The notes under the pieces are model-generated. The model saw only the letters and a program-made list of their open reading frames with translations. It was not told the origin of the DNA and did not search any database. A stretch of 64,000 nt of DNA. Origin: an uncultured Clostridia bacterium. Its GTDB lineage: Bacteria; Bacillota; Clostridia; TANB77; CAG-508. Within the stretch, counting starts at the first letter, position 1, and each line of letters begins with the position of its first letter. Of this stretch, positions 658 to 56,786 are shown one piece after another. The stretch is from assembly GCA_934169725.1 (NCBI GenBank), contig CAKPOF010000003.1:112637-176636 (forward strand), written 5' to 3'. Made by a program: the position numbers and the translations under genes.

Positions 658-700
658 GTAGTATTTTTAAAAATTACAGTTTGTTATATCATTTAATATT

Positions 701-816
701 ATATTGTTTTTTATACCTTGTGTGTCGCAATCTTTATAAAAAATAAAAATGAAGATTGCTCCAAATCGCACTCACTGTCGTTCGTTTGGTCGCTTACGCG
801 GTATTTCAAACAATAT
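701..816 (+). repeat. Intergenic palindromic repeat family A, copy 1. Conserved ends atattgtttt / aaacaatat. Internal hairpin gcaatctt...aagattgc. The perfect inverted repeat (27 bp in total, 18 bp of it copy-specific) extends into the flanks
   Basis: Direct comparison with the copies at 29314 and 52987. The shared core is tccaa(a/t)tcgcactcac...gttcgttt(g/a)(g/a)tcgcttacgcggtatttcaaa. Confidence 0.8.
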
Positions 817-988
817 AATATTAAATGATATAACTAGTGAAAATCATATATCCATAAATAGTAATATAAAATAAAGAATTTATAATAAAATTTTATTAAA
901 AAAGTTGCAATATTTTGCCAATAATAGTATAATATAAAAGGTAGCATAATAATATATAAGAAAATATTATTTAAAGAGAGGTAAAAAA

Positions 989-2251
989 ATGGATTATTTA
1001 TATATATTAAGAGAAGCTTTAGTATGGACTGTAACAATATTTTGGTTATACCAAGTAGTAGTTAGTTTATGTTCTTTAATAAAATTAAAAGATAAACCAT
1101 TAAAAGTAAACAAAGATCACAGATTTATGGCAATTATACCTGCACATAATGAAGAAGCGGTAGTTGCTAATTTAGTAGAAAGTTTAAAAAATCAAACATA
1201 TAATAAAGACTTATATGATATATATGTAATTGCTGATAATTGTACAGATAATACAGCAAAAGTAGCAAGAGATGCTGGAGCAATAGTATATGAAAGATTT
1301 GATGAAACTAAAAAAACAAAAGGATATGCATTAAATTGGTTTTTACAACAAAAAATCAAAGAAAATGCACCATATGATGCATTTTTCGTATTTGATGCTG
1401 ATAATATAGTAGACAAAAATTTCATAAAAAATATGAATAAAAAATTATGTCAAGGTGAAGATGTAGTACAAGGATATAGAGATATAAAAAATCCTTCTGA
1501 CAACTGGATTACAGCAGGATATGCAATATTCTATTGGCAAATGCATAGATTTTATCATTTAGCTAGATACAATATTGGATTATCACCATTACTAAATGGT
1601 ACAGGTTTTATGGTTAAATTTGATGTTATAAAACCACAAGGATGGGATACAGAAACTTTAACAGAAGATATAGAGTTTTCTTTAAAAAGAATTATAAAAG
1701 GTAAAAAATTAGGTTGGGCAACAGATGCTATTGTTTATGATGAACAACCAACAGGATTTAGACAAAGTTGGTCACAAAGAAGCAGATGGACAGTAGGACA
1801 TATTCAATGTATAAAAAAATATACAAAGGATTTAGCAATTGCTGCAAAAGAAAATAAAAAAATGATTAATATAGATGGATTATTTTATATAGTAGGAAGT
1901 ATTCCAATGTTTGTAATAACAATGTTATTATTATTTTCTAATTTTGTAATGTATAATTCATCAGCTATAACATCAGCAGAATTAATAAAAAATATATTAT
2001 TCTATTTACTTCCAACATTTGTATTACCAATATTTATAGGAATGTTTGCTATGTGGTTAGATGGAAGAAAAATTAAACCAATGGCAAAAGGATTACTTTG
2101 TTATCCATTATTCCTATTAACATGGATATTTATCAATTTTAAATGTTTATTTATAAGAAATACTTCATGGGAAAAGATAGACCATGTAAGAAGCATAAAA
2201 ATATCAGATGTTTCTGATGATGAAAATAAGACTGAAAAAGAATTAATTTAA
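989..2251 (+). CDS. Family 2 glycosyltransferase, processive PgaC/IcaA-like exopolysaccharide synthase
   Basis: N-terminal transmembrane segment, FDAD (DxD) motif, QRSRW (QxxRW) motif and four C-terminal transmembrane segments. RBS agagagg. Confidence 0.8.
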   Translation: MDYLYILREALVWTVTIFWLYQVVVSLCSLIKLKDKPLKVNKDHRFMAIIPAHNEEAVVANLVESLKNQTYNKDLYDIYVIADNCTDNTAKVARDAGAIVYERFDETKKTKGYALNWFLQQKIKENAPYDAFFVFDADNIVDKNFIKNMNKKLCQGEDVVQGYRDIKNPSDNWITAGYAIFYWQMHRFYHLARYNIGLSPLLNGTGFMVKFDVIKPQGWDTETLTEDIEFSLKRIIKGKKLGWATDAIVYDEQPTGFRQSWSQRSRWTVGHIQCIKKYTKDLAIAAKENKKMINIDGLFYIVGSIPMFVITMLLLFSNFVMYNSSAITSAELIKNILFYLLPTFVLPIFIGMFAMWLDGRKIKPMAKGLLCYPLFLLTWIFINFKCLFIRNTSWEKIDHVRSIKISDVSDDENKTEKELI

Positions 2252-22064: not shown

Positions 22065-22345
22065 ATAAAACATAAAATAATTTTAATAAATAAAAACGAA
22101 GAAAAAGAGAAGTACATTTAAAACTAATTTAAAGAGAATAGAAGTCGATGGCTGTGAGCTTCTAAAATAAAGATAAATGGAAAGTAACTTTAGAGTTGAT
22201 AATCCGAAAATAAACTTAAGATTATCCGTAATACTGCGTTAAAGTAAAAAGAGATATCATCTAATTAATTAGATGATAATTAAGGTGGTACCGTGAGAAT
22301 AGCTCGCCCTTATGCTTAGTAAATAGCATATTGGCGAGTTTTTAT
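22065..22345 (+). promoter_or_regulatory. T-box riboswitch leader, probably valine-specific, with an intrinsic terminator
   Basis: T-box sequence aattaaggtggtaccgtg at 22277-22294. Terminator ctcgcc...ggcgag plus a T-run at about 22301-22345. Candidate specifier codons GUA (22183-85) and GUC (22143-45). Upstream promoter tggaca-N17-tataat at about 22029-22058. Confidence 0.8.
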
Positions 22346-22376
22346 ATATTTGTTCTATATTAGGAGGGATGAAAAA

Positions 22377-23231
22377 ATGTTAAAAATACAGACAAAAAAA
22401 CTAGGAGCTGAGCTAACTAGTATACAATGTAATGGCAAAGAGATGTTGTTTCAAGGCAAAGAAATATTAGATGATACGGGGAATCCATATTGGAAAAGAC
22501 AAGCACCCATATTGTTTCCAATTGTTGGTCAACTAAAGGATTCAAAAACTCAAATAGATGGAAATTTATACGAGATGACACAACATGGATTTGCAAGAGA
22601 TATGGAGTTTGAAGAGGTATCAAAATCAGAAAATAAACATCATTATGTATTAAAATATAATGAAGATACATTAAAACGATATCCTTATAAATTTGAATTG
22701 CACATTATATATGAAATTGTTGAAAATACATTAATAGTAAAATATGAAGTAAAAAATATAGATGACAAGACAATATATTTTGGATTAGGAGGTCATCCAG
22801 CATTTAACTGTGCTTATAGCAATGAGGAATATGAAATTGTATTTCCACAAGAAGAAAATATTGAATTTTTAAAATTAAAAAATGGATTAGTGGATACAGA
22901 AAAAGCTCAAAATATTTTAGTAGATAAAAAAATTCATTTGAAAGAAGATACATTTGATAATGATGCAGTAATAATGAAAAATATAAAGTCAAATACAATA
23001 ATATTGCAAAATAAAAAAACAAATAAAAAAATATTAGAATTTGATTTTACAGGATTTCCATATTTGGCATTATGGTCAAAAAGAGGAGCCCCATTTGTCT
23101 GCATTGAACCATGGCAAAATACAGCAGATAGAATTGATAGTACACAAGTTTATAAAGATAAAGAAAATATTATTAAACTAGAAAAAAATAATATGTTTGA
23201 ATGTAAATATTCAATTAAATTTTATGATTAA
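22377..23231 (+). CDS. Aldose 1-epimerase family protein (galactose mutarotase-like)
   Basis: WKRQAPILFPIVGQL...HGFAR motifs. The start is placed at the ATG after the RBS aggaggg. Confidence 0.7.
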   Translation: MLKIQTKKLGAELTSIQCNGKEMLFQGKEILDDTGNPYWKRQAPILFPIVGQLKDSKTQIDGNLYEMTQHGFARDMEFEEVSKSENKHHYVLKYNEDTLKRYPYKFELHIIYEIVENTLIVKYEVKNIDDKTIYFGLGGHPAFNCAYSNEEYEIVFPQEENIEFLKLKNGLVDTEKAQNILVDKKIHLKEDTFDNDAVIMKNIKSNTIILQNKKTNKKILEFDFTGFPYLALWSKRGAPFVCIEPWQNTADRIDSTQVYKDKENIIKLEKNNMFECKYSIKFYD

Positions 23232-23244
23232 GGAGGATTATTTT

Positions 23245-25917
23245 ATGAGTGAAAAATTAAGTAATAAATATAACCCACAGGAATTTGAAGAAAAATTATA
23301 TCAAGAATGGGAAGAAAAAGGCTATTTTAAACCAAGCATGGACAAAACAAAAGAAAGTTTTTGTATTATGATGCCACCACCAAATGTAACAGGTAAATTA
23401 CACATGGGGCATGCATTAGATGATACAATTCAAGATATATTAATTCGTTTCAAAAGAATGCAAGGATATAATACTTTATGGTTGCCAGGTAGTGATCATG
23501 CGGCGATTTCTACAGAAATGAAAGTAGTTGAAAAATTAAGAAATGAAGGAAAAACAAAACAAGAATTAGGAAGAGAAAAATTTTTAGAAGAAGCATGGGA
23601 ATGGACTAAACTTTATGGTGGTACTATAGAAATGCAACAAAAAAAATTAGGATGTTCTTGTGATTGGGAAAGAAGAAGATTTACATTAGATGAAGGTTTA
23701 TCAGATGCGGTATTAGAACAATTTGTTGATTTATATAAAAAAGGTTTAATATATAAAGGAACAAGAATGATAAATTATTGCCCAAATTGTAAAACTTCAA
23801 TATCAGATGCAGAAGTAGAATATAAAGAAGAAGCTTCTCATTTATGGCATATTAGATACAAAGTATCTGGTGAAGAAAATAGATATATTATTGTTGCAAC
23901 AACAAGACCTGAAACAATGCTGGGAGATACGGCTGTTGCTGTCCATCCAGAAGATGATAGATATAAGGATTTAGTTGGAAAAACATGTATATTACCAATT
24001 ATGAACAAAGAAATTCCTATTATAGCAGATAAGTTTGTTGAAAAAGAATTTGGGACAGGTTGTGTTAAAATCACACCTGCACATGATATAAACGATTATC
24101 AAGCTGGATTAAGACATAATCTTGAAATTATAGAAGTTTTTGACGAAAACAATAAGATGAAAGATTTAGTTCCTGAGTATAAAGGAATGGATATATTAGA
24201 AGCAAGAAATTTAATTGTAAAAAAATTAGATGAATTAGGAGATTTAGTAAAAACAGAAGATTATACACATAATGTCGGAAAATGTGAAAGATGTAAAACA
24301 ACAATAGAACCTAAAATATCAGAGCAATGGTTTGTATCAATGAAACAATTAGCACAAAGAGCAGCTGATTCTGTAAGAAATGAAGAAGCTAAATTTATAC
24401 CAAAAAAATACGAAAAGCAATATTTTAACTGGTTAGATAATATTCAAGATTGGTGTATCTCTAGACAATTGTGGTGGGGACATCAAATACCTGCGTATTA
24501 TTGTGATGAATGTGGACATATAAATGTTGATAAAAAAGCACCAGAAAAATGCGAAAAATGTGGAAGCACTAAATTACATCAAGATCCAGATACATTAGAC
24601 ACTTGGTTTAGTTCAGCATTATGGCCATTTTCAACACTAGGTTGGCCAAATAAAGAATCAGAGGATTATAAAATGTTTTATCCTACAAATGTATTGGTAA
24701 CAGGGTTTGATATTATTACATTCTGGGTATCAAGAATGATGTCACAAGGATTGGAATTCACAGGAAAAGCACCATTTAAAGATATATTGATACATGGTAT
24801 GGTACGTGATAGCCAAGGAAGAAAAATGTCAAAAACTCTAGGAAATGGAATAGACCCAATTGAAATAATAGATAAATATGGAGCTGATAGTTTAAGATTT
24901 GCTGTTATTTCAGGAACAACAATGGGAAATGATATAAGATATATGCCAGAAAAATTAGAACAAGCGTCAAATTTTGCTAACAAAATATGGAATGCTACAA
25001 AATTCATAAGAAACAATGATGTAAAAGATGAAGACATTGTTAATTTCCATAAAAAAGTCTATAATAATGGCAAATATAAATCAGAATTATTAAATATAGA
25101 AGATAAATGGATTATAACTAAAATAGAAAAACTAATTGTAGAAGTTACTAACAATATTGAAAATTATGATTTAGGTGTTGCGTTAGATAAAATTTATAAC
25201 TTCATTTGGAATGAGTTTTGCGATTGGTATATAGAAATGGTAAAAACAAGATTATATAGTGAAGATTATCAAGAAAAAGTAAAAGTATCGTATATGTTAA
25301 ATTATGAATTTAGTATATTAATGAAATTATTACATCCTTTTATGCCATTTGTTACGACAGAAATATATAGAAATTTAGTTAAATATGATGATAAAGATTT
25401 AATCATTTCTGAATGGCCTAAATCAAATAATCAAGATTTTTCAAAAGATTTTGAATTTGTAGAAAGATTAAAAAGAATTATTACTGAAATAAGAAATACA
25501 AGAGCTAATATGAATGTACATCCATCAAAAAAAGCAAATTTAATTTTTGTTACAAAAGAGTATGATAATCAACTAAATGAAGCCAAGGAATTTTTATTAA
25601 AACTTGGATTTGGAAACAAAATAATTATTCAAAATGATAAAACAGGAATTAAAGATAATGCTATTAGTATAGTAGAGGATGGAATAGAACTATATATGCC
25701 GTTTGAAGGATTGGTTGATATAGAGCAAGAAATAAAAAGATTAGAAGAGGAAAAGAAAAAATTAGAGGGTGAAGTAGCAAGATGTGAAAAAATGTTATCA
25801 AACCCTGGTTTTATGAATAAAGCACCACAAAATAAGATTGATGAAGAAAAAGGAAAATTAAATAAGTATCAACAGATGTTAGAAAAAATAAATGAAAATT
25901 TGAGAAAAATTTCATAA
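23245..25917 (+). CDS. valS: Valyl-tRNA synthetase
   Basis: HMGH motif, KMSKT motif and a C-terminal coiled coil. RBS aaggagga. The listed upstream extension to 23197 overlaps the preceding gene and is rejected. Confidence 0.93.
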   Translation: MSEKLSNKYNPQEFEEKLYQEWEEKGYFKPSMDKTKESFCIMMPPPNVTGKLHMGHALDDTIQDILIRFKRMQGYNTLWLPGSDHAAISTEMKVVEKLRNEGKTKQELGREKFLEEAWEWTKLYGGTIEMQQKKLGCSCDWERRRFTLDEGLSDAVLEQFVDLYKKGLIYKGTRMINYCPNCKTSISDAEVEYKEEASHLWHIRYKVSGEENRYIIVATTRPETMLGDTAVAVHPEDDRYKDLVGKTCILPIMNKEIPIIADKFVEKEFGTGCVKITPAHDINDYQAGLRHNLEIIEVFDENNKMKDLVPEYKGMDILEARNLIVKKLDELGDLVKTEDYTHNVGKCERCKTTIEPKISEQWFVSMKQLAQRAADSVRNEEAKFIPKKYEKQYFNWLDNIQDWCISRQLWWGHQIPAYYCDECGHINVDKKAPEKCEKCGSTKLHQDPDTLDTWFSSALWPFSTLGWPNKESEDYKMFYPTNVLVTGFDIITFWVSRMMSQGLEFTGKAPFKDILIHGMVRDSQGRKMSKTLGNGIDPIEIIDKYGADSLRFAVISGTTMGNDIRYMPEKLEQASNFANKIWNATKFIRNNDVKDEDIVNFHKKVYNNGKYKSELLNIEDKWIITKIEKLIVEVTNNIENYDLGVALDKIYNFIWNEFCDWYIEMVKTRLYSEDYQEKVKVSYMLNYEFSILMKLLHPFMPFVTTEIYRNLVKYDDKDLIISEWPKSNNQDFSKDFEFVERLKRIITEIRNTRANMNVHPSKKANLIFVTKEYDNQLNEAKEFLLKLGFGNKIIIQNDKTGIKDNAISIVEDGIELYMPFEGLVDIEQEIKRLEEEKKKLEGEVARCEKMLSNPGFMNKAPQNKIDEEKGKLNKYQQMLEKINENLRKIS

Positions 25918-29227: not shown

Positions 29228-29313
29228 ATGTTAAAAAAATATGATAAATAAAATATATATTTTATTGTCACAATTCACAGTGTATGAAATAAATTCTTTT
29301 TAAAATTGATAAT

Positions 29314-29433
29314 ATATTGTTTTTTATACTTTGCTGTCGCAAACCACATATTAAAATTACTAGTATGTAGTTTGCTCCAATTCGCACTCACTATCGTTCG
29401 TTTGATCGCTTACGCGGTATTTCAAAACAATAT
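29314..29433 (+). repeat. Palindromic repeat family A, copy 2
   Basis: Nearly identical to copy 3. Internal hairpin gcaaac...gtttgc. Flank extension ttgataa/ttatcaa. Confidence 0.85.
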
Positions 29434-29576
29434 GTTATCAAATTTTTAAGTTAACTATTATAAACTATGAATTGTGGCTAATTAATTGTAAATGCTACTT
29501 ATTTTTATAAATTGGTTGAAAAAAATATTATTTTGAAATATAATAGCAATGATTTTAGTAGATGGGAGGAATACAA

Positions 29577-43955: not shown

Positions 43956-43981
43956 CATATAATATATTGTAGGTGAGGTTT

Positions 43982-44501
43982 ATGAAAGTTTTAAAAGAAC
44001 TCTATATAGATGCTAAAAATATAAAGGAACATGATCCAGCATGTAGAAGCATATTGGAAGTTATTATGTTATACCCAGGATTTCATATTTTAGTTTTTTA
44101 CAAATTATCTCATTTTTTATATAAACGCAGATTGTTATTTTGTGCAAGATTAATTTCACAAATTGGAAGGTTTTTAACTGGAATAGAAATACATCCTGGT
44201 GCACAAATAGGAAAAAAATTATTTATAGATCATGGTATGGGAATAGTTATAGGAGAAACAGCAACTATAGGAAATAATTGTACGATATATCATAATAGTA
44301 CATTAGGTGGAACAGGAAAAGACAAATATAAAAGACATCCTGATATAGGAAATAATGTTATGATTGGTGCAGGTTCGAAAGTATTGGGACCAATAAAGGT
44401 AGGAAATAATGTAAAAATACGGTGCAAATAGTACAGTTTTAAAAGATATACCAGATAATGTGACTGTGGTTGAATGTAATAGAATAATATCAAAAAAATA
44501 A
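43982..44501 (+). pseudogene. cysE: Serine O-acetyltransferase (CysE, hexapeptide repeat). It is truncated at 44431 by an apparent 1-nt insertion near 44420. The true C-terminus ([18 protein letters not shown]...) continues in the +1 frame to 44501
   Basis: Hexapeptide repeats. The out-of-frame continuation matches the canonical CysE C-terminus. Confidence 0.75.
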
Positions 44502-49525: not shown

Positions 49526-49566
49526 AAAGGAAAAAATCTCAAAGGCAATAGCGATTATAGAATTTT

Positions 49567-49601
49567 TATATACTAGGAAATGAAAAATTTCCTAGTATAT
49601 A
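49567..49601. other. Perfect 15-bp inverted repeat tatatactaggaaat-gaaaa-atttcctagtatata
   Basis: Read directly from the sequence. Lies between the hydA terminator and a minus-strand small-ORF terminator. Confidence 0.7.
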
Positions 49602-49649
49602 AAAAAGAGACAAATTGGATTTCTTCCAAGAGTCTCTTTTATAAAATAA

Positions 49650-52866: not shown

Positions 52867-52986
52867 CTTATAATAATGGAATATTAGTATTAAACAATAT
52901 TATATGATATGTATAATATTGTTTAATATGTTATATATAGTTACAATTTACAATTCAAAATATTTAACTTATAAAAATTTAATAAT

Positions 52987-53107
52987 ATATTGTTTTTTTA
53001 TACCTTGGTGTCGCAAACCACATATTAAAATTACTAGTATGTAGTTTGCTCCAATTCGCACTCACTTTTGTTCGTTTAATCGCTTACGCGGTATTTCAAA
53101 ACAATAT
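52987..53107 (+). repeat. Palindromic repeat family A, copy 3
   Basis: Includes a 23-bp perfect terminal inverted repeat aaaatttaataatatattgtttt / aaaacaatatattattaaatttt. Confidence 0.85.
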
Positions 53108-53210
53108 ATTATTAAATTTTAAAATGAGATTTATTTCATAAATTGTAAATTGTAACTATATATAAGTATATAATAAAGTACAATACATATAATAAAGTAG
53201 GAGGGAGTAC

Positions 53211-56743: not shown

Positions 56744-56786
56744 CAAAAAAACAATATAGACTTTAAAATCTATATTGTTTTTTATT
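56744..56786. terminator. Bidirectional terminator aacaatatagactttaaaatctatattgtt
   Basis: Lies between convergent genes. A and T runs flank it. Confidence 0.8.

Follow-up and report, generated by a model that had tools for sequence, protein, structure and literature searches.

Undescribed small non-coding palindromic repeats situated just past genes in many uncultured gut Clostridia

The Correia elements (CREE/NEMIS) known from Neisseria and the ERIC/IRU elements known from enterobacteria are non-coding imperfect palindromes of 100-250 bp that occur in many intergenic copies, often past genes. Their arms form long hairpins in transcripts, and related bacteria are polymorphic for their presence or absence. 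Correia elements also carry a central binding site for the IHF protein and have terminal inverted repeats with a target duplication. REP/BIME sequences are RAYT-mobilised repeats of high copy number, extragenic at gene 3' ends or between convergent genes. Their stems stay complementary while the sequence drifts between species, they can be mosaic or nested with other repeats, and their proposed roles are termination, mRNA stability and protein binding. Single REPs are 20-40 nt long and have a conserved GTAG head, no large asymmetric centre and no target duplication. The bcr1-type, RUP, BOX and SPRITE sequences of Firmicutes are small interspersed intergenic repeats of low-GC Gram-positive bacteria with stable predicted folds and, in some cases, compensatory changes.

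The repeats described here (family A) are undescribed small non-coding palindromes sited just past genes in many uncultured gut Clostridia. They are like Correia and ERIC elements in size, in intergenic placement past genes, in their hairpin arms and in presence/absence polymorphism. They differ in that they have no sequence similarity to either, that their host is low-GC Clostridia, that no cognate transposase is known, that their arms are copy-specific and up to 70 bp long and that their direct repeats are 8 bp, not TA as in the Correia comparison. Conservation in family A is highest in the centre and lowest in the arms, which is the inverse of the usual MITE pattern. Family A shares with REP/BIME its placement at gene 3' ends and between convergent genes, its high copy number, its drifting complementary stems and its mosaic or nested combination with other repeats; assignment to that class was rejected because of the asymmetric centre of 85-140 nt, the lack of a GTAG head and the single large hairpins. 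The bcr1, RUP, BOX and SPRITE repeats are unrelated to family A in sequence and host, and most of them have short or no terminal inverted repeats. To our knowledge, none of these has both an asymmetric centre under constraint and arms of 30-70 bp that differ from copy to copy.

Copies in the 64-kb window

The window, which is the whole 64-kb stretch of DNA analysed here, has 27% G+C and a strongly positive GC skew, so that its + strand is probably the leading strand. The 18-mer TCGCTTACGCGGTATTTC occurs exactly three times in it (0.01 expected), and nhmmer with the family profile likewise returns exactly three copies, with a fourth approximately 1.1 kb to the left of the window start. All three are on the + strand, where a preliminary description of the window had placed them. 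Their positions were thus correct, but copies 2 and 3 reach further than had been proposed, to outer repeats ending GTCACAATT/GTTACAATT. The features are as follows.

683..834, + strand: copy 1, whole hairpin unit (left arm 683-717, right arm 800-834, centre 716-801)
727-759, + strand: copy 1, inner hairpin
760-801, + strand: copy 1, 3' conserved box
29267..29478, + strand: copy 2, full-length form with degenerate outer inverted repeat; termini GTCACAATT (29267-29275) and AATTGTGGC (29470-29478)
29302-29330 / 29416-29445, + strand: copy 2, arms, well paired
29329-29417, + strand: copy 2, centre
29339-29375, + strand: copy 2, inner hairpin
52932..52939: 8-mer TATATATA to the left of copy 3, matching its partner at 53157-53164 in 8/8 positions at the GTTAC termini
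52940..53156, + strand: copy 3, full-length form; termini GTTACAATT (52940-52948) and AATTGTAAC (53148-53156)
52974-53004 / 53090-53120, + strand: copy 3, arms, perfectly paired
53003-53091, + strand: copy 3, centre
53013-53049, + strand: copy 3, inner hairpin
53157..53164: 8-mer TATATATA to the right of copy 3, partner of 52932-52939

Copy 1 (nhmmer E-value: 1e-29 with the family profile) starts 26 nt past the stop codon of a YegS/DAGK-like ORF (55-657). Its arms are 35 nt long and 91% complementary, with mismatches confined to the internal loop of the family, and its predicted fold has an energy of -51.9 kcal/mol (z -10). For the three copies together, z-scores range from -6 to -10 on both strands; folding, one of the checks proposed in the preliminary description, thus shows the copies to be far stabler than shuffled sequences on either strand. 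That description had also reported perfect outer stems specific to each copy. The complement is exact in copy 1 (GTTATATCATTTAATATT at 683-700 pairs with 817-834) and in copy 3 (AAAATTTAATAAT / ATTATTAAATTTT), and in copy 2 (TTGATAA / TTATCAA) it includes one T.G position. The inner hairpin, as had been noted, differs in sequence between copy 1 (GCAATCTT/AAGATTGC) and copies 2 and 3 (GCAAAC/GTTTGC), and pairing is intact in all.

The copies lie between genes for a YegS/DAGK-like protein and a GT2 protein, a Peptidase_S11 protein and a Zn-dependent PLC-like protein, and a CBS protein and an AI-2E protein; the functions of these genes are unrelated to one another. The ORFs on either side of copy 2 diverge (Peptidase_S11 on the - strand, Zn_dep_PLPC on the + strand), and at the orthologous site L066 also has a family A copy. 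From copies 1, 2 and 3 it is 172, 128 and 103 nt, respectively, to the next start codon on the + strand. These distances agree with the earlier placement of the copies upstream of + strand genes, but closeness of the element to the preceding stop codon is the more consistent feature, and "upstream of genes" is a less apt description of family A than "immediately downstream of genes". Likely promoters of downstream genes are outside the element (905-933, a promoter-like site for the GT2 gene past copy 1, and 29516-29544). Scans of the three intergenic regions found no conventional terminator and no promoter-like site inside the centre. Across the window there is no enrichment of GTTACAATT as a motif, and the sister families B and C are absent from it.

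Copies 1 and 2 have no target duplication; in copy 2 the terminal motif is 62/61 nt from the centre and the flanking 8-mers are alike at 4/8 positions, with no direct repeat. The TATATATA pair of copy 3 may be an 8-bp target-site duplication, a reading that is ambiguous since the sequence is itself palindromic and might just as well belong to the stem.

Anatomy, hosts and genomic position

Complete copies have four parts: a 5' box, an inner hairpin, a 3' box and a closing inverted repeat. The first three form an asymmetric, sequence-conserved centre of 85-140 nt (approximately 90 nt). The 5' box is CCTTG(N2-3)GTCGC. The inner hairpin (GCAA...TTGC, 27-116 nt) is itself a variable palindrome. 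The 3' box is GCTCCA(A)TCGCACTCAC-N3-4-GTTCGTTT-RR-TCGCTTACGCGG, in short form GCTCCAATCGCACTCAC...GTTCGTTTRRTCGCTTACGCGG or GCTCCAATCGCACTCAC...GTTCGTTTGGTCGCTTACGCGG. By eye, the boxes have repeated TCGC/TTCG motifs at roughly helical spacing. The closing inverted repeat is 25-70 bp or more in length, copy-specific in sequence and self-complementary; beside the centre it is broken by a small conserved asymmetric loop (TTA vs TTTC), to allow for which stems were measured by gapped extension. Arms are unrelated across the distant genomes L042 (68 bp), L088 (55 bp), L022 (45 bp, perfect) and L086 (43 bp, G+C-richer), and within each of these they are almost perfectly complementary. Units are 135-250 bp long, and full-length forms of approximately 205-250 bp end in 5'-GTTAC(A/T)(A/G)T. 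At least three kinds of outer end, unrelated to one another, are found around the centre: GTTAC..., TTCAAGTYTCGAC... (from one MAG) and, in a mouse MAG, a larger repeat. This occurrence in at least three unrelated shells fits the entry of a module into other palindromes as well as it fits remodelling of the arms.

A scan with the pattern GTTCGTTTNNTCGCTTACGCGG, covering one genome per species, found at least 91 loci in at least 46 species-level MAGs. Family A is a genuine repeat family, as had been supposed, rather than a chance AT-rich palindrome. Within these loci nhmmer recognizes 103 copies, divergent ones included. Copies were gathered by an exact 20-nt core pattern, so the uniformity of the core partly reflects that pattern; divergent copies exist. 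Among the matches listed, all carriers are MAGs of uncultured gut Clostridia or Clostridium sp. from human, mouse, rabbit, goat and chicken. The family thereby adds a widespread repeat to small-genome uncultured gut Clostridia, whose non-coding DNA is essentially unexplored.

The repeat family appears to be previously undescribed, and a literature search with the core string turned up only an unrelated paper. Comparison with Rfam, another of the checks proposed earlier, gave no covariance-model match at gathering thresholds, and with permissive filters (E-values up to 10) only chance-level matches (E-value >= 1) were returned. A scan for tRNA and tmRNA found none, and blastn against plasmids and phages gave no match. 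The pattern scan of IMG/VR found one match in 2.9 million contigs, which argues that family A is not phage-borne. Resemblances of the core to cre boxes, to the ends of IS66 or IS6, to T-loops and to sso CS-6 motifs were partial and were set aside.

None of 86 copies is within an ORF, and 74 of the 86 face a gene 3' end, the median distances being 27 nt back to the stop codon of that gene and 77 nt on to the following start codon. With this median of 27 nt past the stop codon, family A sits where intrinsic terminators do, but no T tract follows the window copies. When orthologues are collapsed, 69 independent sites remain. In tandem contexts, 35 copies are co-oriented with the genes and 14 are opposed (71:29, p = 0.004); the 69 sites further include 6 convergent and 6 divergent contexts. 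Cores are intact to an equal degree in sense and antisense copies. The 71:29 orientation bias is not predicted by an orientation-free DNA function and counts against explaining the family as a MITE that acts at the DNA level.

Mobility, concerted arm change and inversion

The site of copy 3 lacks family A at 80 of 80 orthologous metagenome loci (60-95% protein identity), approximately 70 of which have the same upstream CBS gene. The empty sites by which mobility was to be checked according to the preliminary description thus exist. In the close relatives L093, L096 and L097 the slot holds an ordinary intrinsic terminator, and in L094/L095 and L132/L115 it holds different long-armed palindromic elements. 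Same-species contigs, which were found through downstream proteins, include no empty site and no flipped form. Those that span the element (L172, L174, L175 and L176) are identical in sequence and orientation among the matches listed, save for one unmirrored arm SNP in L176; of copy 3, L173 includes the right end alone, and L177 stops short of copy 1. L012 and L079 are syntenic with other parts of the window and were rejected as empty sites because their gene order differs.

Of 86 copies, 6 carry the terminal motif GYYRCWRTW (e.g. GTTACAATT) on both arms and another 4 carry it on a single arm (background: 3 of 152 windows). Copies 2 and 3 of the window are among these ten. The motif is 53-65 nt from the centre in most bearers and 39-40 nt from it in L057. 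The other 76 of the 86 copies have no GTTAC termini, and their ends are unrelated. The 8-mers that flank the GTTAC termini are identical in L010 (TATGATTC), L057 (AATATTTA) and copy 3 (TATATATA, palindromic), match at 7/8 positions in L072 and L088 and are unrelated in copy 2. A match of at least 7/8 is therefore found in 5 of 6 anchored copies (chance rate: 0.079; p = 1.7e-5). These 8-bp direct repeats at full-length ends would point to insertion by a DDE-type transposase. An unanchored scan for direct repeats at all stem bases did no better than a displaced-flank control, and the 8-mers TTCATGAA and TTTGCAAA were set aside as evidence of target-site duplication because they are palindromic.

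In a different 234-bp element (L053:5964-6197) the same GTTACAGTTCAG ends enclose a centre unrelated to that of family A, so the ends look like a recognition site common to one transposase. No cognate autonomous IS with matching ends was found in approximately 1.2 Mb searched. An autonomous parent, in which the core halves would be split by an ORF, was considered and rejected: the same approximately 1.2 Mb contains no split copies and no long GTTAC-ended element.

Family A elements are below approximately 300 bp, non-coding and dispersed in many copies, as MITEs are, and the copy-3 site shows the presence/absence polymorphism of a MITE. The family is best read as a MITE-like mobile repeat in the terminator slot, a subset of which has GTTACAAT-type termini and 8-bp direct repeats. 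A foldback element or MITE was one of three candidates in the preliminary description, and it fits best of the three, given the many genomes, the 80 empty orthologous loci and the GTTAC termini with 8-bp repeats in a subset.

The arms change in concert after insertion. Identity between the arms of one copy is approximately 0.9 (perfect save for the internal loop), and identity to the nearest non-orthologous copy is typically 0.6-0.9. L024 and L038, whose coding flanks are orthologous, both carry the rare core variant CCTTATG; their outer arms are unrelated to each other, each pair is self-complementary, and the nearby intergenic DNA is unalignable. Because the rare variant is common to both and the arms are different, the arms must have changed after insertion.

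The unit also inverts. The flanks of L020/L053 match those of L062 in reverse (93.6% and 89.7% over approximately 390 nt), and these copies have the rare core variant TCTGCAC in common, which indicates that the unit was inverted in place. Paralogues in the mouse MAG show both configurations within the larger repeat, and the asymmetric loop moves with the centre, which places the breakpoints inside the paired arms. A sister family that occupies the copy-3 slot behaves in the same way: in the centre, L094 matches the reverse complement of L095 at 88% identity and L095 read directly at 71%, and arm identity is 100% and 95% within the L094/L095 copies vs 80-83% between them.

Template switching between inverted-repeat arms homogenises the arms, inverts the spacer and expands the inverted repeats; it also creates or maintains perfect hairpins and produces "compensatory" changes without G-U (PMC8604942, PMC8794818, PMC13100816). 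The hairpins in those studies are like family A and the L094/L095 sister family in their homogenised arms, G-U-free multi-base changes, flank expansion and spacer inversion. Unlike family A, which is a mobile family with an inverted spacer of 85-140 nt, they represent a mutational process that acts on arbitrary inverted repeats in other organisms, with spacers that are mostly short. Judging from the pattern of change, template switching is likely to be the mechanism by which family A arms are homogenised.

Stem pairing, constraint on the centre and competing explanations

A strand-specific RNA helix should allow G.U and not A.C. Mismatches in the stems of family A show no such preference: there are 44 G.T and 39 A.C mismatches in the outer stems and 8 G.T and 7 A.C in the inner hairpin. 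An alignment of 39 sequences contains 13 covarying pairs and 75 cells with double changes, a score reached by 0 of 500 shuffles. The covarying pairs jump between Watson-Crick states, and one-sided (G-U) intermediates are nearly absent (one example column has UA 18, CG 15, AU 5 and GU 0). Covariation analysis, as proposed in the preliminary description, thus finds strong covariation in the outer helix and inner hairpin, but the two small helices predicted inside the conserved boxes do not covary in this alignment. The pairing of the stems is of a DNA type, Watson-Crick only. With no excess of G.T over A.C, with both orientations and with inversion at an orthologous site, the pattern argues for homogenisation at the DNA level and not for selection at the RNA level. 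The compensatory pattern had previously been taken as a sign of selection on secondary structure; the missing wobble bias, scarce G-U intermediates, occurrence in both orientations and orthologous inversion run counter to RNA structure as the thing selected. The matching stems resemble RNA covariation, yet their complementarity most likely stems from DNA copying errors. Family A is in this respect a clean natural case of near-perfect "compensatory covariation" arising at the DNA level, and it cautions against relying on covariation to find RNAs in genomes rich in repeats or in A+T, where a plain count of G.T vs A.C mismatches exposes the artefact.

Divergence was calculated from six orthologous species pairs. 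It is 13.0% (624/4800) in the flanks, which are mostly coding, 17.7% (80/451) in the arms, 4.1% (9/222) in the inner hairpin and 1.9% (6/322) in the conserved boxes; when the 20 pattern-fixed positions are removed from the boxes, it is 3.0% (6/202; p = 2e-6). At orthologous sites the centre therefore evolves approximately 4-7 times slower than the adjoining, mostly coding DNA, and the arms evolve faster. At orthologous loci, whichever way the unit lies, the centre is genuinely constrained. This constraint could in principle stem instead from gene conversion among the many copies. Rare locus-specific variants are common to orthologues and not to paralogues, which argues against frequent gene conversion between copies, and selection at each locus would be the simpler reading of the conservation. 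As the centre is conserved in either orientation, a DNA-level protein-binding module is favoured over an RNA; by analogy with Correia, ERIC and REP-type repeats, the centre is most likely a sequence-specific protein-binding site on DNA, held between self-pairing arms. The presence of a constrained centre in terminator slots suggests a function relevant to the host, e.g. termination, insulation or protein binding.

The explanation that we hold to be moderately probable is that family A is a MITE or foldback repeat in which the arms are kept complementary at the DNA level and the centre is constrained. A DDE-type transposase supplied in trans would insert the unit, as the GTTAC ends and 8-bp direct repeats suggest. 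Elements would be retained almost exclusively in the short gap that follows a stop codon, the place of an ordinary intrinsic terminator in relatives. Once the unit is inserted, its arms would be re-copied from each other in DNA, either by intramolecular template switching at replication or by recombination between arms. Such re-copying would yield perfect Watson-Crick arms, copy-specific change and lengthening of the arms and occasional inversion of the centre; the "covariation" and the copy-specific outer stems would be its by-products. A more specific proposal, which we offer tentatively and regard as doubtful, is that the centre is an exapted module, spread by the MITE and held by purifying selection locus by locus across dozens of species, with the arms left free to change through template switching. 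Such a centre could serve, in either orientation, as a binding platform for a host protein or the mobilising enzyme, or act through a single-stranded or cruciform DNA structure. A stronger version would be a structure-defined foldback transposon, the unit ends of which are set by where hairpin pairing stops and not by sequence.

Were the unit instead a structured non-coding RNA, acting as a small RNA or within a 3'-UTR or leader, its long closing helix and inner hairpin would be selected for RNA folding and the centre would be a functional RNA core. In favour of this, the folds predicted for either strand are very stable, covariation of the outer helix and the inner hairpin is statistically strong, the centre is constrained at orthologous loci, and copies tend to be co-oriented with neighbouring genes (35:14) in regions that are probably transcribed. 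An RNA is nevertheless unlikely, given stem mismatches without wobble bias, the near absence of G-U intermediates, and perfect helices of 30-68 bp, which are unusual for functional RNAs. Moreover, in tandem contexts 29% of copies run antisense to both of their neighbours and have cores that are just as intact, one orthologous site shows the unit inverted, the helices predicted in the conserved core are invariant and hence unsupported, Rfam has no match even at E-values up to 10, and the neighbouring genes are functionally unrelated. The copy-specific outer stems could instead be halves of a split target, if the centre with short inner arms were an independent element that enters the dyads of pre-existing palindromes. 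The slot is an intrinsic terminator in relatives, and some distal stems are terminator-like, with A and T tracts (L034 AAAAGCTGGG...CCCAGCTTTT and L019 AAACCTAGC...GCTAGGTTT); one centre is found in at least three unrelated shells, the repeat of the mouse MAG holds it both ways round, and a different GTTACAG-ended element exists without the family A centre. We nevertheless think this quite improbable. For none of the copies was a palindromic target recovered in its empty state, one would not expect perfect palindromes of 2 x 40-68 bp to exist beforehand, and the roughly similar distance of the terminal motif from the centre in most bearers across species (53-65 nt; 39-40 nt in L057) suggests one composite unit with a common origin. 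Orthologues with the same rare core variants but different arms indicate that arms change post-insertion, and since orthologous arms are remodelled in concert after insertion, palindrome targeting is not needed to account for the distal stems.

Invertons are common in gut bacteria, and family A might also be a phase-variable switch in which a site-specific recombinase acts at the centre or inner arms to control read-through or expression of the adjacent genes. Such a switch would explain why the unit can face either way among paralogues, and why it does so at orthologous sites of both family A and the sister family; an Xer-like tyrosine recombinase gene, recognized by eye, adjoins one copy in L079. 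This explanation is very unlikely. Dozens of copies per genome lie beside unrelated genes with no recurrent neighbouring recombinase found, the centre has no promoter-like site, and the downstream promoters are outside the unit. The arms are far more variable than usual recombinase sites, L172, L174, L175 and L176 have a single orientation among the matches listed, and both orientations are seen between species and between paralogues only.

Fourth and truncated copies of family A

A fourth copy of family A (the palindromic repeat with a conserved asymmetric centre between copy-specific inverted arms) is found in the same genome, at positions 2-109 of L174 and L175, approximately 1.1 kb to the left of window position 1. 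As this copy lies just beyond the window edge, the density of family A in this region is approximately one per 16-20 kb. The window species also includes a strain in which a lone C-to-A substitution has altered the left arm of copy 1, at L176:~50-62 (corresponding to window 690), and the right arm shows no matching change. Such a one-sided difference is an ordinary mutation, not yet "corrected".

The copies at loci L009, L016, L017, L035, L039 and L073 are truncated to the 3' box and right arm. The L009 copy is 5'-deleted, and complete copies are present at the same site in L027, L036 and L054. The truncated copies are consistent with deletion-prone palindromes.

Other palindromic elements

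Two further palindromic families and one element sharing its termini with family A were identified at the following loci.

L094:2179-2367 and L095:101-293: second long-armed palindromic family, unrelated to family A; orthologous to window ~52870-53200
L132 (~2290-2440), L115 (~2330-2440) and the right flanks of L070 and L045: third palindromic family, with ..TCAGCGGTCCCCACG.. in its centre
L053:5964-6197: element of 234 bp, flanked by a direct repeat (7/8); its 22-bp termini (GTTACAGTTCAGTAAGAAAAAT) are perfect

The second family, whose centre includes ..GGAGAATCTCAAACTTGCTTTGAGAGGTGCC.., fills the copy-3 terminator slot (the gap after the stop codon at the copy-3 site) in two relatives, L094 and L095. 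Between these two, the centre is in opposite orientation and the arms co-vary. In L132 this slot is taken by the third family, of which L115 has a version with an internal deletion; in the mouse MAG the palindromes of the third family adjoin family-A copies. Searches of the window for the second (L094/L095 type) and third (L132/L115 type) families found neither. The L053 element has the ends common to full-length family-A copies and an unrelated centre. It is possibly a further MITE that shares its transposase with family A.

A hairpin motif with TTTGGGGACGG(A/G)G recurs in several MAGs, near or within family-A arms (left of the copy in L081, in the outer flanks of L034 and L089 and in the arms of L042). 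The motif is possibly a small palindromic repeat in its own right.

Palindromes and genes of the window and a family-A neighbour

The window also holds the following structured features.

49563-49605: near-perfect palindrome, 19-bp arms, 5-nt gap
56746-56783: near-perfect palindrome, 19-bp arms, no gap; between convergent ORFs
22090-22314, plus strand: T-box leader (RF00230; 118 bits, E-value: 1.4e-25)

Both palindromes resemble hairpins of the bidirectional terminator type, or they may be "empty" palindromes. The T-box leader is upstream of ORF 22350-23231 and a 906-aa ORF (23197-25917). By eye, a hexapeptide-transferase-like ORF (43973-44431) has an apparent early stop and continues in another frame to ~44500; either a frameshift or an assembly error could explain this break.

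In L079, the gene adjoining the family-A copy (1058-1320, minus strand) ends in a XerC/XerD-type tyrosine recombinase motif (..LRHTAATLMYQYG..HASISTTEIYTHV..). Because it is a single occurrence, this proximity is probably a coincidence.
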